Positions 24 through 33,935 of a stretch of DNA of 64,000 nt are shown here, piece after piece. Below the pieces are notes generated by a model. That model saw only the letters and a program-made list of their open reading frames with translations. It did no database searches and was not told where the DNA came from. The position numbers and the translations under genes are program-made. Position 1 is the stretch's first letter. Each line of letters begins with the position of its first letter. Source of the stretch: Candidatus Omnitrophota bacterium (GTDB taxonomy: Bacteria > Omnitrophota > Gorgyraeia > Zapsychrales > Zapsychraceae); assembly GCA_020429915.1 (NCBI GenBank), contig JAGQKV010000026.1, positions 2,217-66,216 of the forward strand, in the 5' to 3' direction.

Positions 24-3000
24 ATGGCTAACCGCAGGCGACAATTCAATGTTCGCGTCGCGCTGATCACGCTCTTCGCGTGTGTTATGGGGATGGTGTG
101 TCCGCGGGCCGCCTTTACGGTCGCGCCGTGGTTTGATTCCAACTGGAATTACCGCAAACAAATTACGGTCGATGAGACTAAGGTGGCGTCCGACCTGACT
201 GATTTCCCGATGCTCATCAACCTGTCGGCCGACAGTGGCCTGGCCGGCCATGCCCAGGCGGACGGGGACGACATCCTGTTCACGGCAAGCGACGGGACCA
301 CACAGCTCGATCATGAGATCGAACGCTATGATGCCGGTACCGGCGCACTGGTCGCCTGGGTGGAGGTCCCGCTGCTGACGTCCACCACCGGGACCATCGT
401 GTATATGTATTACGGCAACGGTGCGGCCGCTAATCAGGAGAATGTCGCGGGGACCTGGTCGTCGACTTACCAGGGCGTTTGGCACATGGCGGAAGACCCG
501 TCGATTGATACCGACGGCGACTGCGGCGGCGGCACGTCCGAGGAGTGCGATTCGACCAACAATGACCTGGATGGCGAATCATTCGGTTCGATGACGAATA
601 CCGATCTGGTCACCGGGCAGATCAACGGCGCTCTTGAATTGGACGGCAATGACGATTACATCGGCGTGGCCGACAGCGGGACGTTGGATATCACCGATGA
701 CCTGTCGCTGTCGACCTGGATCCGGCCGGAACTGCAGGCGGCCGGCGGGGCGGGAAGCATCGCGGTAATGGCGGTCGAACAGCGCGTCTTCGGCGACAAG
801 CAGGGGACCATGCCGGAGATGGTGCATGTGGCGGGAGAAATTTATGCCATCGCCTACGCGGGTAACGGCAACGACGGATTCCTGACCACGATACGGGTGG
901 CCGACGACGGGACGATCACCGCCAGCGAAATCATCGATACGCTGGAATTCGACGCCATCCAGGGTCTTAATCCCGAGATTATCCCGGTCAGCGGGAACAT
1001 TTACGCGGTGGCCTATCAGGGGCAGGGCAATGACGGATTTCTGATCAGTGTGTCCATCTCCAGCGCCGGCGTCATATCGGCCGTGATCGACTCGATCGAG
1101 TTTGCTCCGGTCGACGGGATCACGCCCAAAATCGTCGAGTTGTCCACCGGGGTGTTCGCTATCGCCGTGAACGGCGGAGCCCAGGACGACGACCTCTTTA
1201 CGGTCACTATCAGCGGCGCCGGCGCGATCAGCAGCTCCCCGGTGGAGGAGATGGTCTTTGGTGACATCACCGCATTTGAGCCGGAGATAATTCACATCGC
1301 GGGCGATATTTACGCGGTTGTATTCCGCGGGTCGGCCAATGACGGTTACGTTTCTACGATTGAGATCGGCACCGACGGGACGATTCAATCCGGAACCATC
1401 ATCGATACCCTGGAGTTTGATACTTTCTATGCCGAGGATCCGGAGATCATCCTGGTCAACGGCGATGTCTACGCGATCGCGTATGAAGGGGACGGCAACG
1501 ACGGGTTCGTGACTACGGTCGAAATCGACAGCAACGGCCAGATTACCGATACGATCCTGGACACCTTTGAGTTCGATTCCACCGGTGCCGACAACGCCCA
1601 GATCGTCAATGTCACCGGTAACATCTATGCGATCGCGTACGACGCGGGGACGGGCGGTAACGACTTTGCCACGATTACCATCGCCAATGACGGCAATATC
1701 GGTCCGACCGTACTGGACCGGCTGGTCTTCGGCGATGTGCAGGCGAATGAGGCGGAGATTATCCACATTTCCGGTGATATCTATGCGGTGGTCTACCGGG
1801 GCGCGGGCAGCGACGGTTACGTGACGACGGTGGACATTTCCGCTGCGGGCAGCATCGATGCCGGGGTCATTCTCGATGTCCTGGAATTCGATACGGATAA
1901 CGCCCAAAATCCCGAGATCATCCCGGTCTCCGGTGATATTTACGCGATCGTCTACCGCGGGTCCGGGAATGACGGTTTTGTCGTGACCGTCGACATTGAT
2001 TCCGCCGGTAACATCCAGGATACTTTGGTCGATTCCGCGGAAATCGTGACGACCGACATCAACTATCCCAGCATCGTGCATATTTCAGGCGATGTCTACG
2101 CGGTCGTCTACACGGACTCGGCGAATGACGGGGTGGCGGTTACCGTGGATATCGCGGCCGACGGCACGATCACCACGCCGGTCATCGATTCCTTCGAATT
2201 CGACACGGTCAGCGGTCTGTATCCGCGGATTATTCATGTGTCCGGTGACGTCTACGCGATTGTCTACGCCGGTTCGGGCAGCGACGGGTTTATCGTCACG
2301 CTGGATATCGACACGGACGGGACCATCAACACGCCGGTTATCGATTCCTTTGAATACGATACATCTGCCGGGATATTTCCGGACATCCAAAATATCACGG
2401 GTGACATCTTTGGGGTCGTTTATCGCGGCGCCGGAAACGACGGGTTTGCCGTGACCCTGGACATCGACACGGACGGGACTATCAACACGCCGGTCATCGA
2501 CAGCCTGGAATTCGATACGACGTTTGCCAACACGCCGAAGCTGATCGATGTGACCGGCACATTGTACGCCGCCGCTTATGAGGACAGTACCGGAGACGGA
2601 CAGATCGTCACCTTTACCATCTCGAATGCCGGCGCGATATCTGCGGTGATCGACTCGTTCGAGTATGAAGTTGAAGACGGGGATGCGCCCGATCTGATCC
2701 AGGTATCCGGTACGATGTTCGCCGTGGCCTACACGTCCCAGGGGGTGGCCAAGCTCTCCACGTTCACGATTTCGAATGCCGGGACGTTCACCGGCAGCCT
2801 GGTCGACCAGGGCGGGTTCGGTTTTGGGGCCGAACACAATGACGCGGATCCCAAACTGGTGCGTCTGGCCAGCGACATGCTGGCGGTCGTCTTTACCGGG
2901 GTCGGGAATGACGGGACGATCAAGACGATACAGATCAATTCGTCCGGGGTCATCACCGACGGTTGGTTCGATTATTTTGAATACGACACCGCGCAGGGGG

Positions 3001-6000
3001 ATGACCCCGACATCATCAATCTCTCCGGGAGCGACTACGCCATCGTTCATGAAAACGGCAGCAGCGTCGGTCAGGTAACGACCCTGGATATCAACAGTGA
3101 CGGGACGATCCCCAAGGTCATCAATGATACCTTGGTGCTCAACGCCACGGCCACGGTCTTCCCCAAGATTACCAACGTCAACGGGACTTTGTATGCCGTG
3201 GTCTATGAAGACGTCGACAATGACGGCGTGATTCAAACGCTCACCATTTCGAGTGCCGGTGCGATCTCCGGCAGCGTGATCGACACCCTCGAATATGAGG
3301 TGGCGGACGGCGACACGCCGGACCTGCTGTCTATTGACAGCGACACGGTGGCCATTCCTTATGCCAAGGCTGGTGTCGCGCGCCTGGCCACGGTCGATAT
3401 CGACGGCAGCGGTATGATGGCAGCCTCCGTAACGGACATCTCCGATTTCGGTTACGGAAGCGTCCATATCGATTCGTCGCCGGAATTAATTCATATCTCA
3501 GGGGAATATTACGCGGTGATCTACGGCGGGACGAGCAACGACGGGATGATTAAGACCATTCGCCTGGATAGCAGCGGAAACGTGGTCGACGGGTTCGTCG
3601 ACTTCTTCGAGTATGCCACCGCCCAGGGGCTCGATCCGAGTGCAGTTCATGTTTCCGGCGATATTTACGCGATCACCTATCGCGGGCCGGGAAATGACGG
3701 TTTTGTGGCCACGGTCGACATCTCGGTGACCGGTACGATCCAGCAGGCGGTGGTCGATGAATGGGAATTTTCAACCACGGATATCATCACCCCGAAGATG
3801 ATTAACATTTCCGGCACCACTTACGCCATCGTGTATGAAGACGAGAACGGGGACGGTCAGCTGGTGACGCTGAGCATCTCCAATGCCGGAGCAATCACCA
3901 CGTCACTGATCGACACCTTTGAATTCGATGTCATCGACGGCGAAACACCGGAGATCATTCCGATCAGCGGGGATATTTACGCGATTGCCTACGACCGCGG
4001 AGAGTTTTCACAAATGAAGACCGTGGAAATATCCGCGGCCGGCGCTATCACGGAGCCCGCCGTCGACCGCGGCGACTACGGCGCGGGCGGGATCCATACC
4101 AATACAGGGCCGGCGCTGTTCCATCTGACCGGGGATATTTGGGGGGTCTTGTATACCGGTGTGGGCGGGGACGGTAAGATCAAGACCATGGAAATCGATG
4201 CCGCCGGGACCGTGGTGGACGGTTTCCGCGACGGTTTTGAATTTGATGAAGTGAACGGGAATCAGTTTGACTTATCCACGGTCTCGGGCGACATCTACGC
4301 GGTGGCGTACCGCGGTGATGCGAATGACGGCTTCCTGGTCACGCTGGATATCTCCACGACCGGGACGATCGCGCAGGCTGTGGTCGATTCCTGGGAGTTT
4401 TCGACCGTTGATATCCAGACGCCGCGCATTCTCAAGATTTCCGGAACGACTTATGCCATGGTTTATGAGAACAGCGCCGGCGCCGGGCAATTGGTCACCT
4501 TGACCATCGCCAATGACGGTTCCATCACGACGTCGTTTATCGACACGCTGACGTTTGACGCCAGCGTCGGCGATACGCCTACCATAATGAATGTCTCCGG
4601 GGACATCTATGCCATAGCCTACAGCGGGGTGGACACGGACGGCTTCCTTGTGACCGTGGATATCGACGCGGCCGGAAACATAACCCCGGTCATCGATACG
4701 TTTGAATTCGACGGGACGGAGGCGCAGACTCCTGAATTGGTTTCGATCACCGGCACCATGGTGGCGGTCGCCTATGATGGGTCGGGCAATGACGGGTTCG
4801 TGTCGACAATCGGTATCGACGCGGCCGGAAATATTGACGCCGCGGTCACCGACACCCTCGAGTTCGATGCGGGGCAGGGTGAGACGCCGGAAATTCGCTA
4901 CCTGGGCAGCGATATCTATGTGATTGCCTACTCCGGGCCCGCGGATGACGGCTTCCTGGTCACCGTCTCTATCGCGTCCGACGGCAATATCGGTCCCGCC
5001 GTGCTCGATTCTCTGGAATTCGACGATCAGAATGCGTTGACGCCTTCGGTACGGACTCTCGGCGACAGCAAGGTCATCATTGCTTATGACGGGGTCGACG
5101 GGGTGACAGGGTACGATCTGCAGATTATCGATGTGCTCTCAGACGCCAATCGCGGGATCTATAAAGGCAATGCTTATCAGATCGACGGCACCAGCGGCAC
5201 CATCTTCGCGACGATCAATACCACGACCATCACCGGTACCAGTACGGTGTCCGGCGCCGACTGGGAACACGTGGTCCTGACCTATGACCGCGACGCCGGC
5301 AGTAATCAGATGAAGCTGTACCTGAGCGGTTCGCTGGCCATAGCCACCGGGTTGACGGATTTCATCAATACGAACAGCGGCTCTTTCAACATCGGTGAGG
5401 CGTTCTTCGGCGGAGTGGACGAAGTGCGCATCGCCGACGGTGCCGTCCTGTCGGCCGACTGGATCGCCACCGAATTCGCCAACCAGAATGATCCCGATAC
5501 GTTCTACACCCTCGGACCGGAGCGGGTGGAAGGGATCAAGACCTGGGGAGACGGAACAAACGTCCCGCCCACCGGGTTCTGGAATGTCGGGGCCAACTGG
5601 ACTGGCAATACCGTTCCGACCGGTGTGGACCTGGTCAACTTCGATGATACCGCTGTCACTGACTGTGTGGTCGATGTGACGGTCGACATCGCGGGTCTCG
5701 ACATCAATACCGGTTATACCGGGTCGATCATCCAGGGATCCAATGTGATCACCATCGGCACCTTCGGATTCAATCAGGCCGACGGGACCTTTACCGGCGG
5801 TGACGCGGATATCGACGTCAACGGAGCGTTCATTCTCAACACCGGGACATTCACCGCGACCAGCGGCACGCTCGCCGTGGCCGAGGACTTCACAATTCTG
5901 ACCAACGGGACCTTTGCTGACAACGGCGGGACCGTAGCGATCGAAGGCTCGATGGATATGAGTGTGACGACCAACGGCGCGACCTTCCATCACCTGACCT

Positions 6001-9000
6001 TCAACAAGATCACGGGTCCGGCGGCGACCGTCACCTTGGAGGACAGCTTCACCGTTCGGCGATTGCTAACCGTGGATAAGGCGGATGCGGATAACTTCAT
6101 CATAACGCCCAACGGAACGCTGACCATCACGGCCCAGGGTTCCTTCGCCATGGCCAACACCAGCGGAAGCGGCAACCTGACCTTCGGTACTTCAGACATG
6201 CTTCTCGATCTGTCCGGGACGCTGGACCAGGATATCACCCAGACCGCGGGGACCTTTGCCGCCGCTTTTGAGAATATCCGGACGACAGGCGTTACCATGT
6301 TGCAGTCCGCATTCACCACCGTCGGCAGCGGGGCGGATTGTACGTTGGTAGAAGGGGTGTTCGCGCTCAACGGCTTTGACTTCACCTGCGGCGGAGACTT
6401 TACCGTGGAGGACGGAGTGACCTTGCGGCTGGACGGAACGGAAACCGTGAGCACGCCCGCGATCAGCCCGACGTCCACGGTCGAGTATGTAGGCACGACC
6501 GCGCTCGGAGTGTTGCAAGCGTGGGACTATGACTTTTTGGTGATCAACGGCACCGGCGGTACCGTGACACAGCAAACGGATGTGGCCGTCGCTGCGGACG
6601 TGACCATCAGCGCGGGGACACTGGACGTCAACGGTTATGAGTTGGCGGTCTCCGGATCGATGGACATCGACGGCGCCCTCGACGCCTCACCGGGCAGCGG
6701 CGGGGATTCACGGATTATCGTGGGGGCGGATTGGGATGCCGCCGGCGGAACGTTCACGCAAACCGATTCTACGGTCATGTTTGTGACCACGACCACGGCC
6801 GGCATTACCTCCGCCGGGGAGGCGTTCGATAACATTGTGATCAACGACGGGCTTATCGGCTACTGGAAGTTTGATGACACGGTGACGTCCTCGGCCGACT
6901 CCAGCGGTTACGGGCATACCGGATCATGGTCGGGTAACCCGTCGCCGTCGACCGACCGGCCGCTGCTTAAGATGCGCAACCGGTACAGTCTGGATTTCAA
7001 CGGTTCCACCGACTTCATTAATGCAGGGGATCAGGATATTTACCGCGGTCTGGATGAATTGACCTTATCGGTTTGGGTCAAGCAAAGCGCGACCGGTCCG
7101 AACCAGGCGGTCATCGGCCACTGGGGCAACACCACACCCCGGGACAGCCGCAAGTTCCTGATCCGCATCAATGACGGTGACATCCAGGGGTTTGTGTATA
7201 CGACACAACCGGCTCAGGAAGGCGGGACCTTCTCGACCACCGACCTGACCGATGCCTGGCACCATTTGGCGCTCACCTGGGACGGATCGACTTTACGCAT
7301 GTACATCGACGGCGCGGTCAGCGGCACCACTTTCTCCGGATCGGGCGCGCTCAATGACACGTCTCAGAATAATTTCTATATCGGTAACGATGAAGGCGGT
7401 TCCGGGACCTTCTTCAACGGGTTGCTCGATGACGTGCGCGTCTATGACCGCGCCCTGACGGCCACGGAGATCGGGAAACTGGCCGACGGCCGTCATCCGT
7501 TGACGTCGCTGGGTACCGTGACCTTGCAGGACGCGTTGGATGTGGACGGCACGTTATTCCTTAACGCCGGCGCGCTGAACACCGGCAGTGACCGGGCAAT
7601 CACCGTGGCCACGGGCTGGGAAAATAACGGCGGAGTCTTCCTGGCCAATACCGGGACGGTCACCTTTGACGGCGGAGATCAGGCCATCCCGGGATCCGAG
7701 ACGTTCTATAACTTCGAGATGTCCGTGACATCGACCGGGACACTCACCTTCGGGAAACGTTCGGTGACCGCCACGACCGGGACGCTCACGTTGCAGGGGG
7801 CGGCCGGAAACCTGCTGGCGTTGCGCAGTTCGGAGGATGCGATACGCTCCGAGATCAATCCCGCCGGCGGCCGGGTGATCGGATTCCTGGATGTTCATGA
7901 TAATTCCAATATCAGCGGGGCCGTGATCGACTGTACCAACAATTGTACGGACTCGGGGAACAATATTGAGTGGGACTTCGGCGGCGGCACCAACACCCTG
8001 AGCGGAACGCTTTACACGGACGAGGGGATTACGCCGTTGACCAGCACGAACTTGGCCGTTTCCATCGACGGGGATACGGCGATACTCACGGCGACGTCCA
8101 ACGCGGTCACCGGGACGTTCCTGATCAATTACACGGCGTCCAGCATCACGGCAGGCGACATCTTAACCTTCTATATCGATGGTGAGACCGAGAAGGGCGT
8201 CACTGTGACCATTTCAGACGGCCATTCGTTGGCCGGCATTCCGATTTATCAAAATTATCTCATCGTGCGCAGCGAAAACGGGCCGAGTCTGACGACGAAT
8301 GATCTGGACGTGGCGAATAACAGCGGGGACGCGGACATCGCTGCCATTTACACCATGACCGGCAGTCTGTTGTTTATGGAATCGGGCACGGAGTTGTTCA
8401 TCCCGTCCGGAGAAACCTTGGCGCCGGACGCGACCATCCGGGTCCACGACATCGACATCAACGGGACGTTGAGCATGAACAGTCTGACGGTGTTCGTGGA
8501 CGGGTCGTGGGACGCGAGTAGCGGTACGTATAGCCAGTCCGCCGCCGGGGTCGTCTTCACCGGGACCGGAACGGAGTCCATCACTGCCGCCAGTCAGTCG
8601 TTCTACGATATGTACTTTAATAACGGCCTGATGGCTTATTGGCGCTTTGAGGAGAGCAGTTCGCCGGCCGTTGACAGCAGCGGCCGCGGCAATCACGGGG
8701 TCTGGAATTCCGACACGGCTTCATCGGCGGACGTCCCGGCCCTGAATTTTACCAATGACCGGTCGATCGAATTCTTTGGGGATGACGATTATGTGGATAT
8801 CATCGATTCACAGGTCGCCGGCCGCGACTTTAAGAATCTCGGCAGCAACAACAACTACACATTGGCCGCGTGGATTCAAACCACCGGCGGCACCGGATCA
8901 GGGACCACCTGGACCGTTAATGCCGTGGTTGTCGAGTTGGGTTCGGAAGGTGCCAGCGCGACCCGTGTGCCGTTCAGTTTCGGGGTGGATTCGGATTTTG

Positions 9001-9860
9001 TAGCGCTCGGACGCACGGCGAACTACACGACATCCGATGAGATCGAAGTTGGGTCCGTAGCCGTCAACGACGGAACGTGGCACCATATCGCCGCCGTTGT
9101 CATGGGCGATACGGTTGATTTCTATGTGGACGGGACCTTCGACGTCTCGCGGACATTCACGGTGGCCACCGGAGACGTGTCGACCAATAACCGGACCGTC
9201 AACTTCCAGATCGGTGTCGGCGCGACGAACTTCGGGGTCAAGAATTTGAGTGATTTTAACGGTCTGATTGATGATGTCCGGATCTATTCGCGGGCGATCT
9301 CGGCCGCGGAGGTCCGCATGCTGGCCGACGGGTATCATGACGGGAACAATCTGGGGATGTGGTCGTTGAATGATGATCTGGACATCAACAACAACTTTAC
9401 GCTGTTCGACGGGACCGTGTCGGCCGGTACCCGTGACATCACCATCGCCGGTGACTGGCAAAACTTCGGCGGCCAGTTCAGTCCGGGTACCGGCCGGGTG
9501 ACTTTTGACGGGACGGCGCAGGCCATCCCGGCTTCGTCCACTTTCTATCAGTTCGACAAGACAGTGGCGGCCACGGATACCCTGACCTTCGGGGAAGGAT
9601 CGACCCTGGTGGTCACCGGATCGGTGCGGATGCAGGGTGCATCCGGCAACTTGTTATTGCTGCGCTCATCAGACAGCGGGACGCAGTGGCGTATTACCCC
9701 GCCGGCGACCAAGCCAATTCGTTTTGTGAATGTCCAAGACTCATTCAATACCTCGCCGAGTGACATCAACCCGGCCGACTCGGTCGATAGCGGTAATAAT
9801 GTCCGCTGGTTCCCGACCCGGACCGGTCCGCTGAAGGGGGCGATCATCTTCGTTGACTAG
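24..9860 (+). CDS. Giant secreted surface protein (3278 aa): N-terminal signal peptide, DUF2341-like domain, several LamG/concanavalin-A-like domains, about 21 tandem 68-aa repeats and Gly/Thr-rich beta-helix-like segments. It resembles an MshQ-like adhesin.
   Basis: Uninterrupted 9.8-kb ORF with no competing long ORFs except antisense junk. N-terminus MANRRRQFNVRVALITLFACVMGMV is signal-like. LamG-type motifs recur (DDVRVYDRALTATEI, DDVRIYSRAISAAEV, SADWIATEF). Repeat consensus is PEIIhvSGDIYAvvYrGsGNDGFv.TvDI...G.I...vIDs.EFD. Confidence 0.75.
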   Translation: MANRRRQFNVRVALITLFACVMGMVCPRAAFTVAPWFDSNWNYRKQITVDETKVASDLTDFPMLINLSADSGLAGHAQADGDDILFTASDGTTQLDHEIERYDAGTGALVAWVEVPLLTSTTGTIVYMYYGNGAAANQENVAGTWSSTYQGVWHMAEDPSIDTDGDCGGGTSEECDSTNNDLDGESFGSMTNTDLVTGQINGALELDGNDDYIGVADSGTLDITDDLSLSTWIRPELQAAGGAGSIAVMAVEQRVFGDKQGTMPEMVHVAGEIYAIAYAGNGNDGFLTTIRVADDGTITASEIIDTLEFDAIQGLNPEIIPVSGNIYAVAYQGQGNDGFLISVSISSAGVISAVIDSIEFAPVDGITPKIVELSTGVFAIAVNGGAQDDDLFTVTISGAGAISSSPVEEMVFGDITAFEPEIIHIAGDIYAVVFRGSANDGYVSTIEIGTDGTIQSGTIIDTLEFDTFYAEDPEIILVNGDVYAIAYEGDGNDGFVTTVEIDSNGQITDTILDTFEFDSTGADNAQIVNVTGNIYAIAYDAGTGGNDFATITIANDGNIGPTVLDRLVFGDVQANEAEIIHISGDIYAVVYRGAGSDGYVTTVDISAAGSIDAGVILDVLEFDTDNAQNPEIIPVSGDIYAIVYRGSGNDGFVVTVDIDSAGNIQDTLVDSAEIVTTDINYPSIVHISGDVYAVVYTDSANDGVAVTVDIAADGTITTPVIDSFEFDTVSGLYPRIIHVSGDVYAIVYAGSGSDGFIVTLDIDTDGTINTPVIDSFEYDTSAGIFPDIQNITGDIFGVVYRGAGNDGFAVTLDIDTDGTINTPVIDSLEFDTTFANTPKLIDVTGTLYAAAYEDSTGDGQIVTFTISNAGAISAVIDSFEYEVEDGDAPDLIQVSGTMFAVAYTSQGVAKLSTFTISNAGTFTGSLVDQGGFGFGAEHNDADPKLVRLASDMLAVVFTGVGNDGTIKTIQINSSGVITDGWFDYFEYDTAQGDDPDIINLSGSDYAIVHENGSSVGQVTTLDINSDGTIPKVINDTLVLNATATVFPKITNVNGTLYAVVYEDVDNDGVIQTLTISSAGAISGSVIDTLEYEVADGDTPDLLSIDSDTVAIPYAKAGVARLATVDIDGSGMMAASVTDISDFGYGSVHIDSSPELIHISGEYYAVIYGGTSNDGMIKTIRLDSSGNVVDGFVDFFEYATAQGLDPSAVHVSGDIYAITYRGPGNDGFVATVDISVTGTIQQAVVDEWEFSTTDIITPKMINISGTTYAIVYEDENGDGQLVTLSISNAGAITTSLIDTFEFDVIDGETPEIIPISGDIYAIAYDRGEFSQMKTVEISAAGAITEPAVDRGDYGAGGIHTNTGPALFHLTGDIWGVLYTGVGGDGKIKTMEIDAAGTVVDGFRDGFEFDEVNGNQFDLSTVSGDIYAVAYRGDANDGFLVTLDISTTGTIAQAVVDSWEFSTVDIQTPRILKISGTTYAMVYENSAGAGQLVTLTIANDGSITTSFIDTLTFDASVGDTPTIMNVSGDIYAIAYSGVDTDGFLVTVDIDAAGNITPVIDTFEFDGTEAQTPELVSITGTMVAVAYDGSGNDGFVSTIGIDAAGNIDAAVTDTLEFDAGQGETPEIRYLGSDIYVIAYSGPADDGFLVTVSIASDGNIGPAVLDSLEFDDQNALTPSVRTLGDSKVIIAYDGVDGVTGYDLQIIDVLSDANRGIYKGNAYQIDGTSGTIFATINTTTITGTSTVSGADWEHVVLTYDRDAGSNQMKLYLSGSLAIATGLTDFINTNSGSFNIGEAFFGGVDEVRIADGAVLSADWIATEFANQNDPDTFYTLGPERVEGIKTWGDGTNVPPTGFWNVGANWTGNTVPTGVDLVNFDDTAVTDCVVDVTVDIAGLDINTGYTGSIIQGSNVITIGTFGFNQADGTFTGGDADIDVNGAFILNTGTFTATSGTLAVAEDFTILTNGTFADNGGTVAIEGSMDMSVTTNGATFHHLTFNKITGPAATVTLEDSFTVRRLLTVDKADADNFIITPNGTLTITAQGSFAMANTSGSGNLTFGTSDMLLDLSGTLDQDITQTAGTFAAAFENIRTTGVTMLQSAFTTVGSGADCTLVEGVFALNGFDFTCGGDFTVEDGVTLRLDGTETVSTPAISPTSTVEYVGTTALGVLQAWDYDFLVINGTGGTVTQQTDVAVAADVTISAGTLDVNGYELAVSGSMDIDGALDASPGSGGDSRIIVGADWDAAGGTFTQTDSTVMFVTTTTAGITSAGEAFDNIVINDGLIGYWKFDDTVTSSADSSGYGHTGSWSGNPSPSTDRPLLKMRNRYSLDFNGSTDFINAGDQDIYRGLDELTLSVWVKQSATGPNQAVIGHWGNTTPRDSRKFLIRINDGDIQGFVYTTQPAQEGGTFSTTDLTDAWHHLALTWDGSTLRMYIDGAVSGTTFSGSGALNDTSQNNFYIGNDEGGSGTFFNGLLDDVRVYDRALTATEIGKLADGRHPLTSLGTVTLQDALDVDGTLFLNAGALNTGSDRAITVATGWENNGGVFLANTGTVTFDGGDQAIPGSETFYNFEMSVTSTGTLTFGKRSVTATTGTLTLQGAAGNLLALRSSEDAIRSEINPAGGRVIGFLDVHDNSNISGAVIDCTNNCTDSGNNIEWDFGGGTNTLSGTLYTDEGITPLTSTNLAVSIDGDTAILTATSNAVTGTFLINYTASSITAGDILTFYIDGETEKGVTVTISDGHSLAGIPIYQNYLIVRSENGPSLTTNDLDVANNSGDADIAAIYTMTGSLLFMESGTELFIPSGETLAPDATIRVHDIDINGTLSMNSLTVFVDGSWDASSGTYSQSAAGVVFTGTGTESITAASQSFYDMYFNNGLMAYWRFEESSSPAVDSSGRGNHGVWNSDTASSADVPALNFTNDRSIEFFGDDDYVDIIDSQVAGRDFKNLGSNNNYTLAAWIQTTGGTGSGTTWTVNAVVVELGSEGASATRVPFSFGVDSDFVALGRTANYTTSDEIEVGSVAVNDGTWHHIAAVVMGDTVDFYVDGTFDVSRTFTVATGDVSTNNRTVNFQIGVGATNFGVKNLSDFNGLIDDVRIYSRAISAAEVRMLADGYHDGNNLGMWSLNDDLDINNNFTLFDGTVSAGTRDITIAGDWQNFGGQFSPGTGRVTFDGTAQAIPASSTFYQFDKTVAATDTLTFGEGSTLVVTGSVRMQGASGNLLLLRSSDSGTQWRITPPATKPIRFVNVQDSFNTSPSDINPADSVDSGNNVRWFPTRTGPLKGAIIFVD
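774..5100 (+). repeat. Array of about 21 tandem, divergent coding repeats of about 204 bp (68 aa) inside the giant CDS
   Basis: The motif SGDIYA[IV]xY.G.GNDGF recurs at a regular spacing of about 68 aa through residues 250-1690 of the translated ORF. Confidence 0.7.
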
Positions 9861-11184: not shown

Positions 11185-11790
11185 GTGCGCGATATAATGC
11201 CAAGCGTTATGAAACGCGTCGTTTATCTGCCAATTCTACTGATCCTCCTCACACCAATTCAAGCCATTGCCGACACACTGGGCGACGTCCTGGAGCGTCA
11301 GGACATGAGCGGTTACCTGGCTGACATTCCCGCCGCGCAACCCGTTACCAGTTATGCTGCCTATCAGGACCGGACGACCTTCCTGTTGGCGTATTATCAC
11401 GCCTATCCCCAAGATCAGAATTTCCTTGAGGACACCCTGCGCGTGCTTCACATCGACCTTCCCGCCCGGCAGGTGACACGTAAGGAAATCCTGTTGCCCG
11501 TTAAGTTGAATGCGTATGAGCCGACTTACCTGGGATCCGTCCTCGAAGTCCGCAAGATCGGTCCGCGTTTTTATTTGAAAGGCCACCTCAGCCCGTCCGC
11601 CAGTCCGACCCTCGTGTTAACGGAGGAATTGGATGTGTGGGATGTCCTGCCCGGCTGGGTGACAGAGACGGATGAGGGGGGCGGCATCATATACCAGCAC
11701 AATGCGGTGCATTTCGGCGTGCCGTCAACACCGCCACGGTTTTTCCGCTATGATCCGGCTGGCCGGACATCCGTCGCTATAAAAAATTAG
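11185..11790 (+). CDS. Hypothetical exported protein
   Basis: ORF with an N-terminal hydrophobic signal (VVYLPILLILLTPIQA). No recognisable domain. The exact start is uncertain (alternative Met at 11197 or 11209). Confidence 0.45.
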   Translation: MRDIMPSVMKRVVYLPILLILLTPIQAIADTLGDVLERQDMSGYLADIPAAQPVTSYAAYQDRTTFLLAYYHAYPQDQNFLEDTLRVLHIDLPARQVTRKEILLPVKLNAYEPTYLGSVLEVRKIGPRFYLKGHLSPSASPTLVLTEELDVWDVLPGWVTETDEGGGIIYQHNAVHFGVPSTPPRFFRYDPAGRTSVAIKN

Positions 11791-11838
11791 GCACACATGC
11801 TCCGGTGATCACGGATTTATGATATCGTAGTACGGAAT

Positions 11839-13299
11839 ATGCGATCTTCTCTAGCAGACAGTTGGCTGACAATCATGTGGCGCCCCATGGGCCGCTGGCG
11901 CACGGAGGTGTTGTGGCGGTTGTTCGGGATCGTGCTGATTCAGTATGTCACCATCCAGGCGCAGGATTATGACTGGGCGACATTTATGAGTCTGCCGCGG
12001 GGATTGCATTGGGCGGGACTGGCGGGTTTGATGTTGGTTGTTCTGGGCGCGCGGCTCATCTGTCTGATTATTGCCGCGGGTGTCCTGCTTTGTTATCTGC
12101 TTCCCATCTATTTTTACGTCGTGACCCTGCAGGTCTCCGAGGAGTACCTGCTTTTTTTGTGCTTGCCGTTGACGGCGATCCTGCTCAGCGTGATCGTCAT
12201 GCTGACGCACTCAGGAATCGATGAGCGCCGCCGCGAGATAATCGATGACGCGCACTGCGCATTGTTTCGGGTCAGCGCGTTGATGATGATGAGTTTCGCG
12301 GCCTTTCACAAAATCAACAGCGATTTTCTCAATCCTGATGTCTCCTGCGCCGCCGGGTTGTTCGCCAATCTCACCGACTGGTGGAACATTCCGTTCCTGG
12401 CCGTTCTCAGGAACGCGCCGCCGGCCATGGGGATCGTCACCGAGGCCTTGGTGCCGGTATTGCTGGCGATCAGTCCGCCGCTCGGTTTGATCTACACGAT
12501 TTTCCTGATGGCATTCATCGGCCTTCTCGGAGCGACGGCCTTCACCCTGATTGTGATTGTGATGGCCTGCGGCTTTCTCCGGGATGAGGACGGGACCGTG
12601 ATCCGCGCGGGCTTTAGTAAGTACAAATGGATCATCGGTGGGATCACGGCGGCTGTAGCGGTGATTTCATTCTTAACCTATACAGGTAAACCGCACTGGT
12701 TCGGATTTCTGCTGTTTCAGTCGACAACGCTGATGGTTTTAGGCGCGGCGATCCTGCCGGTCATTGGCGGCGCACCGCGGCGTCAACCGCTACGCCTGTT
12801 GCCTTCGCCGGCGGCGGTGCGTGTGACGCTGACGGTCTACCTGATCGCCGGGGTCGTCAACGGGTTCAGCCCGTACCTGGGGTGGAAGTTCCGCAGCAGT
12901 TTTGCCATGCTGAGCAACTTGCGCACCGATCATGCACGTTGGAACCATCTGCTCGTCCCCAAGGCCTTTTTTCTGCGCGAACATGATCATTTTATCCGCA
13001 TTACCAAGGTCGACATGAACGCTCCCGCCTACCGGCGCCAGCAGGCCCTAGGCCGGCGCGCGGCCAAAGAGGGAATGGTCGTCGGTCTGGTTTCGCCGAT
13101 GAGCTTGGCGCTACGTTTGAAACGTTTTAACGGTGAGGACACGCAGGTCGACCTGCATGTGACTTACAAAGGAGCCGACTACTTTTTTCCCGACGCCACG
13201 CGCAGCGTCCGTTTAAAGGCCTGGCTCGCCGGCCTGCCGCACAACAAACTCTTCCAGGAATGGCTCGTCAGTGAAGGGCCTCAGCCGTGTTATCACTGA
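11839..13299 (+). CDS. Polytopic integral membrane protein of unknown function
   Basis: 486-aa ORF with at least 8 hydrophobic helices. The start codon is uncertain and no motif could be assigned confidently. Confidence 0.5.
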   Translation: MRSSLADSWLTIMWRPMGRWRTEVLWRLFGIVLIQYVTIQAQDYDWATFMSLPRGLHWAGLAGLMLVVLGARLICLIIAAGVLLCYLLPIYFYVVTLQVSEEYLLFLCLPLTAILLSVIVMLTHSGIDERRREIIDDAHCALFRVSALMMMSFAAFHKINSDFLNPDVSCAAGLFANLTDWWNIPFLAVLRNAPPAMGIVTEALVPVLLAISPPLGLIYTIFLMAFIGLLGATAFTLIVIVMACGFLRDEDGTVIRAGFSKYKWIIGGITAAVAVISFLTYTGKPHWFGFLLFQSTTLMVLGAAILPVIGGAPRRQPLRLLPSPAAVRVTLTVYLIAGVVNGFSPYLGWKFRSSFAMLSNLRTDHARWNHLLVPKAFFLREHDHFIRITKVDMNAPAYRRQQALGRRAAKEGMVVGLVSPMSLALRLKRFNGEDTQVDLHVTYKGADYFFPDATRSVRLKAWLAGLPHNKLFQEWLVSEGPQPCYH

Positions 13300-23668: not shown

Positions 23669-24283
23669 ATGTGTCGTAAGGAGGTTGTCATGAATCAAAC
23701 ATTTTCTCGGTGCCTCGGGGCGATGGCCGCCCTGACGGTGCTTACCGCCGGACCCGCTTGGTGCGACGAAGCGGTCTATCACATTGATCCCGCGCAGAGC
23801 CGCATTGAATTTTCCTTCCGGTCCACCCTCCACAAGGTGGAGGGAGAAGTTCACCGCTTCGCCGGAACGTTCGCCGGCCGGTCCGGACTGATGAACCACA
23901 TCCGTGAGGGAGAAGTCATCGTAGATACCGAATCCCTCGATACCTTCCACCCCAAACGCAATCAAAACATGTTGGCGATGTTCGACAGCACGGAGTATCC
24001 GCGAATCCGTTATCGCATTACGGAAGTCATCGGGGTGCCCGCGGTGGACGGCCCGGAGGGGCGTATTACTCTGAAAGGCGTGCTTACGATACGCGATCGG
24101 GAACAGCCGATCGAGATCCCGGCGGACATCACTGAGACCGAAGAGGGGTTGCGGTTGAACGGCAGTGTCGATCTCAGCCTTAAAGATTTTGACCTGAAGC
24201 CGCCGTCGGTGGCCATGGTCATCCGTGTCTTTGACGCGGTGCATATTGACTTTACCGCCTTACTCAAGGAGCAGCAGACATGA
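23669..24283 (+). CDS. YceI-like family periplasmic protein (polyisoprenoid/lipid-binding)
   Basis: Signal peptide followed by the YceI-like motif IDPAQSRIEFSFRSTLHKVEGEVHRFAGTF. Confidence 0.8.
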   Translation: MCRKEVVMNQTFSRCLGAMAALTVLTAGPAWCDEAVYHIDPAQSRIEFSFRSTLHKVEGEVHRFAGTFAGRSGLMNHIREGEVIVDTESLDTFHPKRNQNMLAMFDSTEYPRIRYRITEVIGVPAVDGPEGRITLKGVLTIRDREQPIEIPADITETEEGLRLNGSVDLSLKDFDLKPPSVAMVIRVFDAVHIDFTALLKEQQT

Positions 24284-25422
24284 CACATTATGACGCGTTG
24301 GTGATCGGGGCGGGTCCGGCGGGGATCGCCGCCGCCATCGAATTATCTTTAGCCGGCTGGGAAGTCTTGCTGATTGACAAGGCCGGTTTTCCCCGCGGAA
24401 AGGTATGCGGCGGTTTCGTCGGACCGGAGAACAAGGCCATCCTCGCCGAGTACGGATTGCTGGATGCCTTGGAGCGTCGCGGCGCCAAGTACGTAACGCA
24501 TCTGCAGATCAGCGCCGCCAACAATATCTCGGTGCGGGTCCCGATCTACTTCAACGGCCGGCCGGACTACGGATTGGGCATCAGCCGCTCCGCGATGGAC
24601 GAACTCCTTTTGGCCAAGGCCCTGGATATCGGCGTCAATTTTGAGGGCGGGATAACCGCCCAACACATGGTCCATCGCGGCGGCCACAGTACCTTCACGT
24701 TGGTGGGCCGGGACGGCCGCGCGCCCGCGGAGGCATCGGCAACGCACGTGATATATGCCAACGGGGGAGCCGTCAAAGGAAAAAGCCCGGCTTCCCGTTT
24801 ATACGGGGCATCATGCCTCTTTGATTCCATCGGCGACAGCGGGGCCGATGTGATCATGCATTTTCTCGATCAAGGCCACGCCGGGATCAACCGCTTCGAG
24901 GACGGATCGGTCAATGTCTGTTACGTCATTAAAGACGCGCTGTTTCGCCGGTTCAAAGGAGATTTTGACCAGGTGTGGCGGCATATGCTGGGAGCTAACC
25001 GAAACCTGTACCGGCAGATGAAGAACGCCCGTCCGCTGACCAGGTGGCACGGGACATTTGTCGATATGGACCGTCCGCTGCGGTTCTTTGACGGCCATGC
25101 CTTTTACACGGGGGACGCCTCTGCGGTGATTCATCCGGTGGCCGGCGGCGGGATAACGCTGGCGTTGAGCGGCGGAATCTTGCTGGGTTCCCTACTCGGC
25201 CGGCATCATCCGGAAGACGTCTTCCGTGCGGCCGAGGCAGAGGCATACGCGAAGGCCTTTCGCCGACGGTTTGCCTGGCCGTTACGGGCCTCACGGATGA
25301 TCGGGGCGGCGGGCCATACGGCGCCCGTGGCCAACTCCGTGATTCGCCTCCTGAAATGGAGGGAAGCCCATTTGCATCAGCTCTTCGATATTTTTCATCA
25401 ACCCGCCGTGTTACAAGCGTAA
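24280..25422 (+). CDS. FAD-dependent oxidoreductase (geranylgeranyl-reductase-like flavoprotein)
   Basis: Rossmann FAD motif YDALVIGAGPAGIAAA followed by GKVCGG. The ATGA start overlaps the YceI stop. Confidence 0.85.
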   Translation: MTHYDALVIGAGPAGIAAAIELSLAGWEVLLIDKAGFPRGKVCGGFVGPENKAILAEYGLLDALERRGAKYVTHLQISAANNISVRVPIYFNGRPDYGLGISRSAMDELLLAKALDIGVNFEGGITAQHMVHRGGHSTFTLVGRDGRAPAEASATHVIYANGGAVKGKSPASRLYGASCLFDSIGDSGADVIMHFLDQGHAGINRFEDGSVNVCYVIKDALFRRFKGDFDQVWRHMLGANRNLYRQMKNARPLTRWHGTFVDMDRPLRFFDGHAFYTGDASAVIHPVAGGGITLALSGGILLGSLLGRHHPEDVFRAAEAEAYAKAFRRRFAWPLRASRMIGAAGHTAPVANSVIRLLKWREAHLHQLFDIFHQPAVLQA

Positions 25423-25440
25423 TTTGTTAAGGAGTATACC

Positions 25441-26550
25441 ATGTCATCAATCAAGATTGTCGATATCGCGACCGCGAACCCGCCGTTGAAACTTACTCAG
25501 GAGGAGATTCTCAACCGGATCCTGAAGTCTCCCTTGCGTTCGGCTCGCGAAAAAAAGTTGTACACCAAGTTCCTCACCGAACCGTCCATCCGGACGCGCT
25601 ACGTCGCGATCGAAGACCAACCGGAGAAATTGTTTGAGGAAACCCAGGACGAAGCCATCGATCGTTTTCAGGTCCAGGCGACCCGTCTGGGTGCACAGGC
25701 CGTCAAGAAGCTGCTGCGCCGGACCGGGCTTAAGCCGCACGACATCGACGGCATCATCATCACCACCTGCACCGGATATCTGTGTCCCGGATTGACATCC
25801 TATATCTCCCAGGCCGTCGGTCTGCGTGAGGATATTTACGCGCTGGATATGGTGGGGACCGGATGCGGGGCGGCCTTGCCGGGGATGAAGTCCGCTTGGC
25901 AATATCTGACCGCCCATCCCGATTCGCGGGTCATTGTGCTGGCGGTGGAAATCTGCACGGCCACTTCCTATTGGAATGAAGATTTGGACCTCATTATTTC
26001 CAATTCGATATTCGGTGACGGAGCCGCCGCCTGCCTGTTGACGAACCGCGGGGAGAGTGCCGGTCTGGAAATCCGGGAGTTCCAATCGGTATTGTGGCCG
26101 CAGTACCGGGACGAGCTGCGTTACGTGACCAGGAACGGACGGCTGCTCAATGTCCTCAAGAAAGATGTGCCTTCGCTGGCGGCCTCCGCGTTTCACCGGA
26201 TTTATCAGCGTCTGACCAAGGACTTCACGGTCAAGATCGACCGGATGGCCGTGCATCCCGGCGGCCGCAAAATCCTCGATGAAATCGAGGCCATTTCTCC
26301 GTTCGGCGGCGATGCCTTGCGCCGTTCACGGTCGGTGCTGGCCCGCTACGGCAATATGTCTTCACCCAGCGTCCTGTATGTGCTGCGCGATATCCTGCAT
26401 AAAGATAACTGTCAGTCCGGCGAGACGGTCGGTATCTTTGCCTTCGGCGCGGGGATGACGGCCTTCGGTTGTCTCGCCGTGTATCGCGCGGCGGCCGTGC
26501 CCGACCGTTCCGTGAACCGTAAGGAGGTGTGCGATGGCGCTGTCGTCTGA
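25441..26550 (+). CDS. Type III polyketide synthase (chalcone/stilbene synthase-like)
   Basis: 369-aa thiolase-fold protein with a CHS-like N-terminus and a Cys-containing active-site region ITTCTGYLCPG. It is co-operonic with the oxidoreductase and the methyltransferase. Confidence 0.75.
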   Translation: MSSIKIVDIATANPPLKLTQEEILNRILKSPLRSAREKKLYTKFLTEPSIRTRYVAIEDQPEKLFEETQDEAIDRFQVQATRLGAQAVKKLLRRTGLKPHDIDGIIITTCTGYLCPGLTSYISQAVGLREDIYALDMVGTGCGAALPGMKSAWQYLTAHPDSRVIVLAVEICTATSYWNEDLDLIISNSIFGDGAAACLLTNRGESAGLEIREFQSVLWPQYRDELRYVTRNGRLLNVLKKDVPSLAASAFHRIYQRLTKDFTVKIDRMAVHPGGRKILDEIEAISPFGGDALRRSRSVLARYGNMSSPSVLYVLRDILHKDNCQSGETVGIFAFGAGMTAFGCLAVYRAAAVPDRSVNRKEVCDGAVV

Positions 26551-27292
26551 AAAAAAGGATTTAATCCGGCGGGCGGGTTTTCAGGAGCACTTCCAGGCGG
26601 ATTCCTGGTCGGACTTCAACCGGCAGTTCTTCAACGGGTTGGCTCCCAAGTATGACGCCCTGAATGAGGTGCTGACCTTCGGGCAGCAAAAGCGCTACAA
26701 AACCCGCGCGGTCCGCCGTTCCGGGATTACCCCCGGGGATCTGGTGCTGGATATCTGTACCGGGACCGGTGATATGGCCTTTTTGATTGCCGACGAATTC
26801 GAGCGCAGCACGGTGATCGGCATCGATGTTGCCGAATCAATGTTGCATATCGCCCGCCGGCGTGCGGCCGGGCGGCCGGATGTCGAATTTCGTGTGGGAG
26901 ACGCCATGGCCCTGCCGTTTACGGACGGTATGTTTGATGCGGCTGTCATGAGCTACGGGTTGCGAAACCTGGATGATTTGCAAAAAGGTATTGATGAGGT
27001 CCGACGGGTCGTGAGGCCCGGGGGGAAGATAACCTTCATCGATCTCGGAAAACCCGAGGGAGCCCTGCGTCAGTTGATTTATCGTGCGTACTTTGAAAAT
27101 CTTTTGCCGTTCCTCGGCCGCCACCTCTTTCACCGGGGCGAGTTCAATTCCTTCCGGTATTTACCGGAATCGAACAAGAATTTTCCCACACCCACCCAAC
27201 TGCGTGCGACGCTGACTGCCAGCGGACTGCGCGACATCCAAACCTACACTTATATGGGAGGGACGGTCCTGCAGCTGACCGCCGTCCGCTGA
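26534..27292 (+). CDS. UbiE/COQ5-family SAM-dependent methyltransferase
   Basis: DLVLDICTGTGDMAF and MSYGLRNLDD motifs. It overlaps the PKS gene by 17 nt. Confidence 0.85.
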   Translation: MALSSEKKDLIRRAGFQEHFQADSWSDFNRQFFNGLAPKYDALNEVLTFGQQKRYKTRAVRRSGITPGDLVLDICTGTGDMAFLIADEFERSTVIGIDVAESMLHIARRRAAGRPDVEFRVGDAMALPFTDGMFDAAVMSYGLRNLDDLQKGIDEVRRVVRPGGKITFIDLGKPEGALRQLIYRAYFENLLPFLGRHLFHRGEFNSFRYLPESNKNFPTPTQLRATLTASGLRDIQTYTYMGGTVLQLTAVR

Positions 27293-31958: not shown

Positions 31959-33935
31959 ATGTCGGGGATAGCCGCTGCTATACATAACAATCTTGCAACA
32001 TCACTGCTCTTGGAACCACGGAGGCGGACACGTATTGTTTGTGCGGCTTGTCTGATTCTGTCCGCCTGTCCGACCGTAGTCCCGAGGGCTGCCGCGAACG
32101 AAGTTTCCCAAGATAACGAATCGGTATACCTGCCGAATGATTCCTACCCGACAGTGATGACTCACGACACGGTTGTCGTCTCGGCCACACGCATGCCCGC
32201 GCTCGTGGGCGAGATTTCACAGGATGTCTATATCATCTCAGGGGACGCGGTCCGCGATTTGCCTGCGCGTGATATTGCCGAGGCCCTGACGTACACTCCT
32301 GCCGTCGATGTTCAATTAAACGGTTTTCCCGGACGTCCCACTTCCTTATCAATTAATGGTTCCAGTGCGCGCCATGTCCGGTTGCTGGTCGACGGGATCC
32401 CCTTCAACACACAGCTCTCGGGCCAGGCCAATCCGGCCCAGATTCCGGTGGATTATGTCGGCAGTGTTGAAATCATAAAGGGCCCGGCGTCCAGTGCTTG
32501 GGGCTCGGCCTTGGGCGGAGTGGTTAATGTGATCTCCAGACCTGTCGGATCGGCCGCACAGCCGCAGGGGGCCGTCACCACTTCTTTTGCCGAGTTCGGA
32601 ACCTTCCGTCACAGCCTCGAATTGGCCGGCGCCGTCGATACGGCAGGCTATTTCTTTACGGGAAGCCACTTTGAGACCGACGGTCCGCGGCCCGTGTCCG
32701 ACGTCAAAGAAAGTAACGGTTTCGGGAAGATCAGCATTCCGCTGGCGGACGCTATGGCGATCACGGGACAGTTCGGATACGTCAACTCCGACTCGCAATA
32801 CAGAGGGCCCACAGACGCCGTTATCTCCGCTCAGCCTTACCGCTCGCGGTTCGGGAAGCTGCAAATCCAGTCTGAGGACGATGACCTGCAATGGTCGGCC
32901 GCCGTCAAATTCAATGATCAGGATATTCGCACCGACTCCATCAGTCCGATGACCGGGGACACGCTGTTCTCCACTATCAGCAGTGACTGGTACAAAGGCA
33001 TCAGTCTGAACGGCAAACTCGATCTCGACGACTACGGCAGCCTGGTGGCCGGCGTCGATTATGAGTATCACCGGTTGAAATCCAACAATTTCCTGGCGAG
33101 CAGTGAGGATCTGACGACGCAGGCTCCCTATATCAACTATTCCATCGGCCGTCGGAATTGGGACGTCGATCTGGGATTGCGCTTCGATCATAATGACCGC
33201 TTCGGATCCCAAGTCAGCCCCAGTCTGGGGGCGGTGTATTATTTTCATGATCCGGCGCGAACGTCCGTGCGTGCCCGGGTGGCCCGCGGTTTCAACGCGC
33301 CGCCATTGTTGTGGTTGTACAATGACGATCCGGCCCTGTTTGTCGGCGCCAATCCCGACCTTAAGGCGGAACGCGCCGTGGTCTATGAGGTCGGACTTAA
33401 ATCCCACTGGCAGAGGCTGCAATTTCAGTTGAATCTGTACCGGGCCAATGTTCGCGACGCGATCGCGCTGATGTTCGACGCGGACGATTTTGTGTTCCGG
33501 CAACGCAACTTCGAAGAGTTCCGGCGGCAGGGTGCGGAGATTTTGATCGATTACCGGCTGACCGATCAAATCACCCTGTATACCAGCGGCGCGTTCAATG
33601 ACGTTGAGAACCGGCAGACCGGTGAGACGGTGCGGGATCAGGGCATCGCCCGGCAGAAATTTACGTTCGGGACCCGCTATCGTAACACGCACGGTTTTTC
33701 CTGTTACCTTCTGGGGTACTATAACCGCTGGAGTTCTCCTCCCGACCTTAATCCCAATGACCGTAAACCCATCTTCGATCTGCGCATGTCCCAGGCCGTA
33801 AAGAAAGAAGGACGGGGGCCGGGGTTGGAAGTTTTCCTGAACGTCCACAATCTGACCAACAGCAAATATTGGTCCAGCGAGTCCTTTCCGTTAGCGAAAC
33901 GGTACTTTGAAGGCGGTATGACCATCCGTTTTTAG
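31959..33935 (+). CDS. TonB-dependent outer-membrane receptor
   Basis: Plug-domain motifs DTVVVSATR...LLVDGIPFN and a C-terminal terminal Phe (GMTIRF). The start is uncertain (in-frame TTG at 32010 would give a better signal peptide). Confidence 0.8.
   Translation: MSGIAAAIHNNLATSLLLEPRRRTRIVCAACLILSACPTVVPRAAANEVSQDNESVYLPNDSYPTVMTHDTVVVSATRMPALVGEISQDVYIISGDAVRDLPARDIAEALTYTPAVDVQLNGFPGRPTSLSINGSSARHVRLLVDGIPFNTQLSGQANPAQIPVDYVGSVEIIKGPASSAWGSALGGVVNVISRPVGSAAQPQGAVTTSFAEFGTFRHSLELAGAVDTAGYFFTGSHFETDGPRPVSDVKESNGFGKISIPLADAMAITGQFGYVNSDSQYRGPTDAVISAQPYRSRFGKLQIQSEDDDLQWSAAVKFNDQDIRTDSISPMTGDTLFSTISSDWYKGISLNGKLDLDDYGSLVAGVDYEYHRLKSNNFLASSEDLTTQAPYINYSIGRRNWDVDLGLRFDHNDRFGSQVSPSLGAVYYFHDPARTSVRARVARGFNAPPLLWLYNDDPALFVGANPDLKAERAVVYEVGLKSHWQRLQFQLNLYRANVRDAIALMFDADDFVFRQRNFEEFRRQGAEILIDYRLTDQITLYTSGAFNDVENRQTGETVRDQGIARQKFTFGTRYRNTHGFSCYLLGYYNRWSSPPDLNPNDRKPIFDLRMSQAVKKEGRGPGLEVFLNVHNLTNSKYWSSESFPLAKRYFEGGMTIRF

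Follow-up and report, generated by a model that had tools for sequence, protein, structure and literature searches.

The window analysed here is a 64,000-nucleotide stretch of DNA from a Candidatus Omnitrophota bacterium. A gene at its start encodes a 3278-residue protein in which a 1,460-residue repeat array is nested in a loop of LamG-1, the first of its LamG domains. Structure models give the array a beta-propeller fold with four antiparallel strands per unit, and it is most likely a row of four consecutive seven-bladed beta-propellers. We consider it fairly probable that the protein is an exported multivalent adhesin made of four LamG-nested seven-bladed propellers and belongs to an uncatalogued family.

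The repeat array and its LamG host domain

The gene's ATG sits 23 nt from the window start and the reading frame runs on uninterrupted, as an initial annotation made from the sequence alone had it. Its product is identical to NCBI MCA9395329.1, a "DUF2341 domain-containing protein" from a Candidatus Omnitrophota metagenome-assembled genome (MAG). The exact protein is present on at least 23 metagenome contigs from different samples, and a whole-protein scan of GTDB genomes returned two distant relatives only. Pfam (2025 copy) places a DUF2341 domain (PF10102; 40.6 bits, cutoff 23.4) at residues 80-144 and Laminin_G_3 (PF13385) over three stretches at 169.3 bits, above the gathering score, bearing out the N-terminal DUF2341 and LamG domains of the initial annotation. 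The central 1,460 residues have no Pfam match. The conserved DUF2341 module probably spans residues ~35-160; residues 14-155 are 50% identical to L004, a Bacteroidota protein. The features of the protein are as follows, all on the plus strand:

24..9860, plus: open reading frame, ATG start, no interruption, 3278 residues plus stop
24..116, plus: N-terminal signal-like segment, residues 1-31 (MANRRRQFNVRVALITLFACVMGMVCPRAAF), from a Kyte-Doolittle scan and the homolog L004
261..455, plus: DUF2341 domain, residues 80-144 (Pfam match)
591..758, plus: N-terminal half of LamG-1, residues ~190-245, ending ...LSLSTWIRPELQAAGGAGSIAV (match of the fused halves and alignment with P0293)
759..5147, plus: repeat array, residues 246-1708, consisting of a D strand, 27 full units and a truncated 28th (unit model)
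5148..5528, plus: C-terminal half of LamG-1, residues 1709-1835 (WEHVVLTYD, VDEVRIAD and SADWIATEF motifs)
5529..6878, plus: Gly/Thr-rich, beta-rich spacer 1, residues 1836-2285, without a family match
6879..7493, plus: LamG-2, best Laminin_G_3 stretch at residues 2327-2483 (Pfam); a sub-threshold TafC match lies here
7494..8618, plus: beta-rich spacer 2, residues 2491-2865
8619..9323, plus: LamG-3, Laminin_G_2 match at residues 3011-3087 (Pfam; match to PDB 4qvs)
9324..9857, plus: C-terminal beta-rich module, residues 3101-3278, similar to the start of spacer 2

The flank before the array (...GALELDGNDDYIGV...LSLSTWIRPE) resembles the opening part of a LamG domain, and the flank after it (...WEHVVLTYD...LYLSG...VDEVRIAD...SADWIATEF) looks like the end of one. 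Residues 150-250 fused to residues 1710-1850 match the Laminin_G_3 profile from position 1 to 151 of 151 (E = 1.4e-13), and LamG-1 reaches full length only once the array is excised. Because the joined halves restore a full-length match, the array in its entirety is an insert within LamG, placed in a single loop of the jelly-roll after ...STWIRPE. The fused DUF2341-LamG region aligns with hundreds of ordinary DUF2341+Laminin_G_3 proteins of 350-670 residues from many bacterial and archaeal phyla (85-97% coverage, 33-41% identity). With one of these uninterrupted relatives, P0293, a single BLASTP alignment crosses the junction (39% identity, E = 2e-67). Natural relatives free of the insertion include L004 and a paralog ~8 kb upstream on contig L002, and the spacing from VWHM to VDEVR is 170 residues in L004 versus 1,643 in the window protein.

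The SADWIATEF motif picked out by the initial annotation is present at residues 1808-1816. That annotation had counted an N-terminal LamG domain and three further LamG-like modules. There are really three LamG domains in all, since the array divides one domain into two halves, which had been counted as the N-terminal piece and the first "further" module. At 31% identity, the stretch from the end of spacer 2 through LamG-3 repeats the one from the end of spacer 1 through LamG-2. The LamG-3 region matches the sequence of PDB 4qvs, an S-layer domain-containing protein (E = 1.1e-6), and this is the sole PDB sequence match of the protein's C-terminal half. NCBIfam (2026) returned nothing for the protein besides a sub-threshold match to TafC (NF052521), which is confined to LamG-2 and scores 119.7 bits against a cutoff of 410 bits, leaving the protein outside that family.

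A regular central array of ~1,460 residues is confirmed, with a unit length and number that differ from the initial estimate of about 21 repeats of 68 residues. Copies of the anchor motif GDIYAxxY are spaced 51-54 residues apart. BLOSUM autocorrelation over residues 241-1760 has its top lag at 52, then at 210, 313 and 104, and the DNA repeats with a period of 156 nt (family spacings 153-159 nt and multiples) and a super-period of 630 nt. By both measures the actual period is 52 residues. A self-built hidden Markov model (HMM) of the unit found 27 copies between residues 261 and 1671, with E-values from 1e-8 to 1e-27. They are followed by a truncated unit at 1671-1708 that has strands A-C only, and a lone D-type strand (about 250-258) precedes unit 1, which makes 28 units over residues ~246-1708. 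The array is far beyond chance, and every unit matches the unit HMM. The blade consensus reads g.tPeIi.vSGDiYAiaY.G.gnDGflvTvdIs.aGtIt..viDtlEFDt.., with four conserved strands and variable loops.

At the DNA level the copies are 60-80% identical without long exact repeats, and Tandem Repeats Finder reported nothing in the array. Two variants of the window protein (P0121 and P0122) are 94.9% identical, have 28 units each and differ by no indels; substitutions amount to 5.3% both in the array and in the C-terminal part. The initial description of an old, stable array with diverged DNA agrees with these data. Within the array a four-unit super-repeat of 630 nt (210 residues) occupies window positions 2526-5033 (units 12-27). 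Units 12, 16, 20 and 24 are mutually 53-61% identical and units 19 and 23 share 65%, while in units 13, 17 and 21 an atypical G.(F/Y)G.G..H ending replaces the usual D strand. Blocks that begin at units 18-19 are up to 55% identical to those four units downstream (background ~40%; DNA ~60%). Duplication of whole propellers as the origin of the array is not supported, because similarity at lag 7 is not enriched.

Propeller fold and the repeat family

In an AlphaFold2 (AF2) model of residues 246-993, DSSP assigned four strands to each 52-residue unit and the predicted local distance difference test (pLDDT) score exceeded 90 over seven blades. Foldseek searches with the window-array model found beta-propellers only, including the Photorhabdus lectins PLL2 and PHL, with template modelling scores of 0.61-0.66 (target-normalised) at ~11% identity. 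A relative of 999 residues with 14 blades nested in LamG (P0148) was modelled with a mean pLDDT of 84.4. The sole dip in confidence inside its array, at residues 527-529, coincides with the exact boundary between seven blades and seven, and its best Foldseek matches were the tandem seven-bladed proteins Trm734, Elp2, DDB1, SF3b130 and Sro7. All top matches to the array models were propellers with probability 1.00. The initial annotation had guessed at beta-propeller or beta-sandwich units, and these predictions side with the propeller.

The models, together with the quantisation of array sizes described below, make four seven-bladed propellers the most likely arrangement. A 7-blade profile gave four full-length matches in the window array, but segments of the window protein had been included in that profile. 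A pattern found across the family, with a leading D strand, n full units and terminal A-C strands, is what velcro-type ring closure predicts. With such closure, an insert of one propeller would start and end side by side at the LamG loop. Read from this sequence pattern, the register of the four putative propellers would be:

804..1901, plus: units 1-7, residues 261-626, putative propeller 1 (register inferred from a D0 strand, six units and strands A-C)
1902..2996, plus: units 8-14, residues 627-991, putative propeller 2 (best stretch of the 7-blade profile at 611-975)
2997..4100, plus: units 15-21, residues 992-1359, putative propeller 3
4101..5147, plus: units 22-28, residues 1360-1708, putative propeller 4; unit 28 has strands A-C only

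The repeat had been called unfamiliar at the outset, and the searches agree. No repeat match was obtained to the Pfam propeller families WD40, FG-GAP/VCBS, Kelch, PQQ, NHL, RCC1, BNR, YVTN or TolB, with cut-offs of E<=1 for the whole window protein, E<=0.1 for segments and E<=10 for 26 family members taken individually. Among these, FG-GAP, PQQ and Kelch were the families that the initial annotation had named as speaking against novelty. The PilY1 propeller PF05567 was likewise unmatched in the window protein (E<=1) and in the 26 members (E<=10). NCBIfam and PHROGs gave no match to the 52-residue repeat, and the 7-blade profile had none among PDB sequences (best E-value 0.36, which is noise). 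The literature searched, on DUF2341, on LamG with propellers and pilins, on long proteins of Omnitrophota and on newly amplified propellers, describes neither the repeat nor the nested composite. The repeat family therefore appears new relative to the domain libraries and literature searched. Some members have sub-threshold Pfam matches to DUF2844 (13 of 26, best E = 1e-4) or DUF3471 (8 of 26, best E = 3e-7); these are short, local matches to non-propeller families and may explain sporadic Pfam labels in precomputed annotations.

The family is large. An 8-unit block used as query returned at least 598 proteins, and the 7-unit profile found 2,055 representatives (clusters at 50% identity, E<=1e-3) in a collection of 1.84 billion proteins, 1,083 of them at E<=1e-30. 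Nearly all are annotated "hypothetical", and the few that are named are proteins from Dehalococcoidia MAGs. Their architectures include 380-residue proteins of seven units only, proteins of ~506 residues with a pilin-like N-terminus followed by seven units, and proteins in which seven units split a LamG domain, along with larger forms. P0013, which has an archaeal Pilin_N, and P0097 belong to the third class and are split at the same point as the window protein. Pilin-like N-termini are found in the members P0004, P0141 and P0013.

Array sizes are strongly quantised. Among 278 retrieved proteins, 190-212 arrays have 7 units, ten have 14, two have 21, two have 28 and one has 49; both 28-unit arrays belong to the cluster of the window protein. 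LamG halves flank 37 arrays in ~35 family proteins, and these arrays have 7, 14, 21 or 28 units. The window protein holds the largest LamG-nested array among the proteins retrieved.

The stand-alone 380-residue proteins lack a signal peptide and have conserved termini (MAEGDIGAV... and ...KHLxxMGIG). One of them, P0029 (L008:7061-8203), lies on an 11-kb contig among small unknown reading frames on the same strand and a ParB gene, which has the look of a virus or mobile element. A viral origin of this class found no support: PHROGs matched neither the class nor its neighbours, a single-protein scan of IMG/VR came back empty, and tblastn found nothing in 50,697 phage and 72,556 plasmid records.

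Function and known systems

Residues 1-31 are the sole strongly hydrophobic stretch of the window protein in the Kyte-Doolittle scan, and the homolog L004 has a classical signal peptide at the aligned position. The segment is thus a putative signal peptide, from which export by a Sec or Tat route and cleavage would follow. No N_methyl or Pilin_N match was found in the protein with Pfam or NCBIfam, and its N-terminus reads as a signal peptide rather than a prepilin or type IV pilin-like start. The repeat array carries 228 Asp and Glu versus 35 Lys and Arg residues and no Cys. Three genes for TonB-dependent receptors in the window (31959-33935, 55789-57774 and 57853-59838, the last two adjacent paralogs) indicate a diderm envelope with an outer membrane; neither exbBD nor tonB genes turned up in the window. 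The window gene probably encodes a giant, very acidic protein that a diderm Omnitrophota bacterium exports to its surface. Residues 1-12 (window 24-60) begin with MANRRRQFNV, in which RRxF resembles a twin-arginine (Tat) motif, and the one NCBIfam match, sub-threshold and on a LamG domain, is to TafC of Tat-dependent fimbriae; Tat export of a protein of 3278 residues seems unlikely.

Relatives of the repeat occur in type IV pilus operons. P0004, with seven blades, is encoded on L006 between pseudopilin-like genes and PilM, downstream of an MshEN/T2SSE ATPase and a T2SSF platform gene. In another type IV pilus operon P0141 (L012:6831-14903) takes the same position; it is a pilin-like protein of 2690 residues with 49 blades (seven propellers), which would be an extraordinarily large pilin head. 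The archaeal pilin P0013 carries its LamG-nested propeller behind Pilin_N and directly follows T2SSE and T2SSF. Because members of the family make up the distal head of pilin-like proteins of type IV pili in other organisms, the propeller is best regarded as an outward-facing binding module. Long proteins of Omnitrophota have been read in the literature as extracellular effectors directed at other cells, and the published proposal of DUF2341 giants as pilus-tip adhesins in archaea (PMC4858521) also agrees with an adhesin. After export, the four propellers and three lectin-fold LamG domains of the window protein would be displayed on the long beta-rich spacers and could bind a polymeric, probably glycan, ligand multivalently on another cell or surface. 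Such binding could attach the cell to prey or host, in line with proposals made for Omnitrophota, and Ca2+ may be coordinated by conserved Asp residues, of which the loops have many. We infer adhesion as the function, glycans as the class of ligand and the role of Ca2+ from this combination of features.

Several points weigh against this reading. The AF2 model of residues 246-993 is confident only where the alignment is deep (units 5-11), and the register is unreadable from it, since confidence tracks where MAFFT stacked 7-blade homologs. Internal similarity peaks at lag 4 and not at lag 7, and a few family arrays have 9-13 or 24 units; the evidence strongly favours seven-fold packing without proving it for each part of the array. 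Neither secretion nor pilus genes lie near the window gene, no sorting or anchoring signal was recognised in the protein, and adhesion as its role is suggested by context and fold only.

The protein might instead be an MshQ- or PilY1-like accessory protein or tip adhesin of a type IV pilus encoded elsewhere, with the propellers as the binding head at the tip. We think this unlikely. In its favour, uninterrupted DUF2341-LamG relatives, some of them with Pilin_N, are automatically named MshQ or prepilin-type at the Joint Genome Institute (JGI), and the propeller family turns up in bacterial and archaeal pilus operons. DUF2341 giants encoded in archaeal pilus loci have been proposed as tip adhesins (PMC4858521), and giant proteins of Omnitrophota are often flanked by genes for type II secretion systems or type IV pili in the literature. 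The window protein itself fits poorly. Its N-terminus is not that of a prepilin, and no PilY1/PilC or MshQ-named model in Pfam or NCBIfam matches it. No pilus, secretin, ATPase, platform, MSHA or ExbBD genes lie within 10 kb upstream (contigs L001-L003) or 54 kb downstream, contrary to the pilus or ExbBD neighbours that the initial annotation had proposed looking for, and neither the protein nor its neighbours match MotA_ExbB. Other large nested-array proteins also lie outside pilus loci, such as P0143, a 21-blade protein with NosD/beta-helix domains. The label "MshQ-like/ExbB-associated" can be kept loosely, for the JGI names of the uninterrupted relatives and for a DUF2341-LamG N-terminal architecture of MshQ type. 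It fails for the pilin-like N-terminus, for location in an msh or type IV pilus operon and for an ExbB channel domain or adjacent exbBD pair.

A structural role, in which propellers and LamG domains self-associate into an S-layer-like lattice or sheath of the envelope, is distinctly improbable. S-layer proteins are commonly acidic and Cys-poor, as the window protein is to an extreme degree, the array is stable between strains without indels, and the LamG match to 4qvs is a weak pointer in the same direction. Against this, Pfam finds no SLH or other cell-wall anchoring domain in the protein, and relatives carry the propeller at the distal end of pilins, which indicates binding rather than a lattice. 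Large multi-spacer architectures are more typical of adhesins, and at 3278 residues the window protein has one. There is only a slim chance that the protein is an extracellular carbohydrate-active enzyme, with catalytic propellers like those of 5- to 7-bladed glycoside hydrolases, lyases and sialidases and with LamG domains as carbohydrate-binding modules. Single family members do match GH130, GH43_C, CBM53 and CHB_HEX, but always below gathering thresholds and in 1-4 of 26 members. LamG falls within the concanavalin A-like lectin/glucanase superfamily, and Omnitrophota giants have been discussed as cell-wall-degrading effectors. Catalytic propellers rely on asymmetric active sites; the blades here are near-equivalent versions of one consensus without blade-specific conserved polar residues, and blade numbers that range from 7 to 49 among relatives suit avidity better than catalysis. 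A hypervariable or contingency locus that varies a surface antigen by rapid change in repeat number would account for a long tandem array in a surface protein and for array sizes that vary widely across the family. The diverged DNA copies and the strain variants of equal length, with their evenly spread substitutions, essentially refute it, and recovery of the exact protein from different samples is a further point against it.

Among known systems PilY1/PilC is functionally the closest, the generic "MshQ-type" DUF2341-LamG proteins correspond to the N-terminal architecture, and propeller lectins to the blade structure. PilY1/PilC, with a C-terminal seven-bladed propeller (PF05567), is likewise an outward-facing binding head tied to type IV pili. 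The window protein, too, would be a large secreted adhesin, and relatives of the repeat sit in pilus operons beside minor-pilin-like genes. The relatives differ in that their propeller is fused to a pilin-like N-terminus instead of being a separate protein docked on minor pilins, and the window protein in that it has no PF05567 match, pilin N-terminus or pilus neighbours and nests four propellers in LamG. The insert-free N-terminal module aligns end to end with MshQ-type proteins (PF10102 plus PF13385), sharing a WFDxxWxYRK start and a ...DEVRxxxxxxSxDWIxTxxxNQxxPxxFY end. Its LamG domain, unlike theirs, is interrupted by the 1,460-residue array, there is no msh or pilus operon, and the protein has 6-8 times the length of typical members.

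The best single-propeller structural matches to the window-array model are the Photorhabdus lectins PLL2 and PHL (PDB 6rgg, 6rfz, 6rg2 and 5mxg), which are also highly symmetric seven-bladed propellers of near-identical blades and bind sugar multivalently. At ~11% identity they have no HMM-level relationship to the array, and they are single soluble propellers, not nested tandem arrays. Elp2, Trm734, DDB1, SF3b130 and Sro7 resemble the array in having two or three separate seven-bladed propellers in one chain. These eukaryotic tandem WD40 proteins are sequence-unrelated intracellular scaffolds (8-12% identity), and the analogy is geometric only. TafC is a subunit of haloarchaeal Tat-fimbriae (PMC11821415) and, like the window protein, a surface-filament or surface protein with a LamG-type domain. 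Its sub-threshold match covers one LamG domain only, far below the cutoff, and leaves the repeat array unmatched.

Three aspects appear to be new: the repeat family itself, array sizes in whole-propeller quanta up to 49 blades, and recurrent nesting in one LamG loop. Beta-propeller adhesin modules are already known, and there is no new kind of molecular system here. We tentatively put forward, as a possibility that could well fail, that this undescribed family serves uncultured bacteria (Dehalococcoidia, Omnitrophota) and archaea as a binding head that can be moved between proteins and stacked, both as the distal domain of type IV pilins and as grafts into one LamG loop, with 7 to 28 blades in the LamG grafts and 49 in a pilin. 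Four propellers folding as an insert inside a 190-residue jelly-roll would, if true, be an extreme case of domain nesting. The apparent architectural rule, multiples of seven blades up to 49 that can be nested in a LamG loop, bears on the evolution and folding of repeat proteins. If the family binds glycans on host or prey surfaces, episymbiotic or predatory members of the "microbial dark matter" could share it as a general means of attachment. For the question of how the ultra-small, uncultured Omnitrophota attach to other cells, giant surface proteins provide the main clue, and most are annotated "DUF" or "hypothetical". What is gained is a definition by which an uncatalogued propeller family, ~2,000 clusters strong and with a clear blade consensus, can be searched for. 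Its link to type IV pilus heads in bacteria and archaea yields a testable hypothesis of adhesion.

Neighbouring genes

Downstream of the gene lie a glutathione peroxidase, a peroxiredoxin, two unknowns, a methyltransferase, a hydantoinase/oxoprolinase and PutA. Two reading frames close by at window 11185-13299, of 201 and 486 residues, have no Pfam or NCBIfam match; the exact 486-residue sequence is absent from the protein collection because gene callers use a shorter, 474-residue start. Upstream, on contigs L001-L003, are a small MqsA/HTH_3 gene, an alpha/beta-hydrolase-like unknown, a ferredoxin-like gene and a GGACT gene. Upstream of the shared GGACT gene the strains differ (L001:1-7700 versus L002:1-7800). 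The L001 variant looks like a defence island, with an SbcC-like AAA_23 protein, two GmrSD proteins and an ADP-ribosylglycohydrolase. The L002 variant has a second DUF2341+LamG protein (1268 residues, LamG uninterrupted), unknowns of 220 and 979 residues, YjbQ and a PMT_2 glycosyltransferase.

Farther into the window, positions 24280-27292 hold a gene resembling FAD-binding monooxygenases, a type III polyketide synthase (chalcone/stilbene synthase-like) and a UbiE/COQ5 methyltransferase, which may constitute a small operon for phenolic-lipid biosynthesis. Positions 44000-50500 have a low GC content (0.41-0.51 versus ~0.57 elsewhere) and are probably a mobile or defence island. They encode an IS481-type transposase (44131-45045, minus strand), a DUF1016/SNase nuclease (45234-46238), an HSDR_N_2 protein, an ion-channel protein (47125-47844) and a NYN-domain protein (47948-48631). 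A HipA-family toxin kinase is encoded at 51205-52527.

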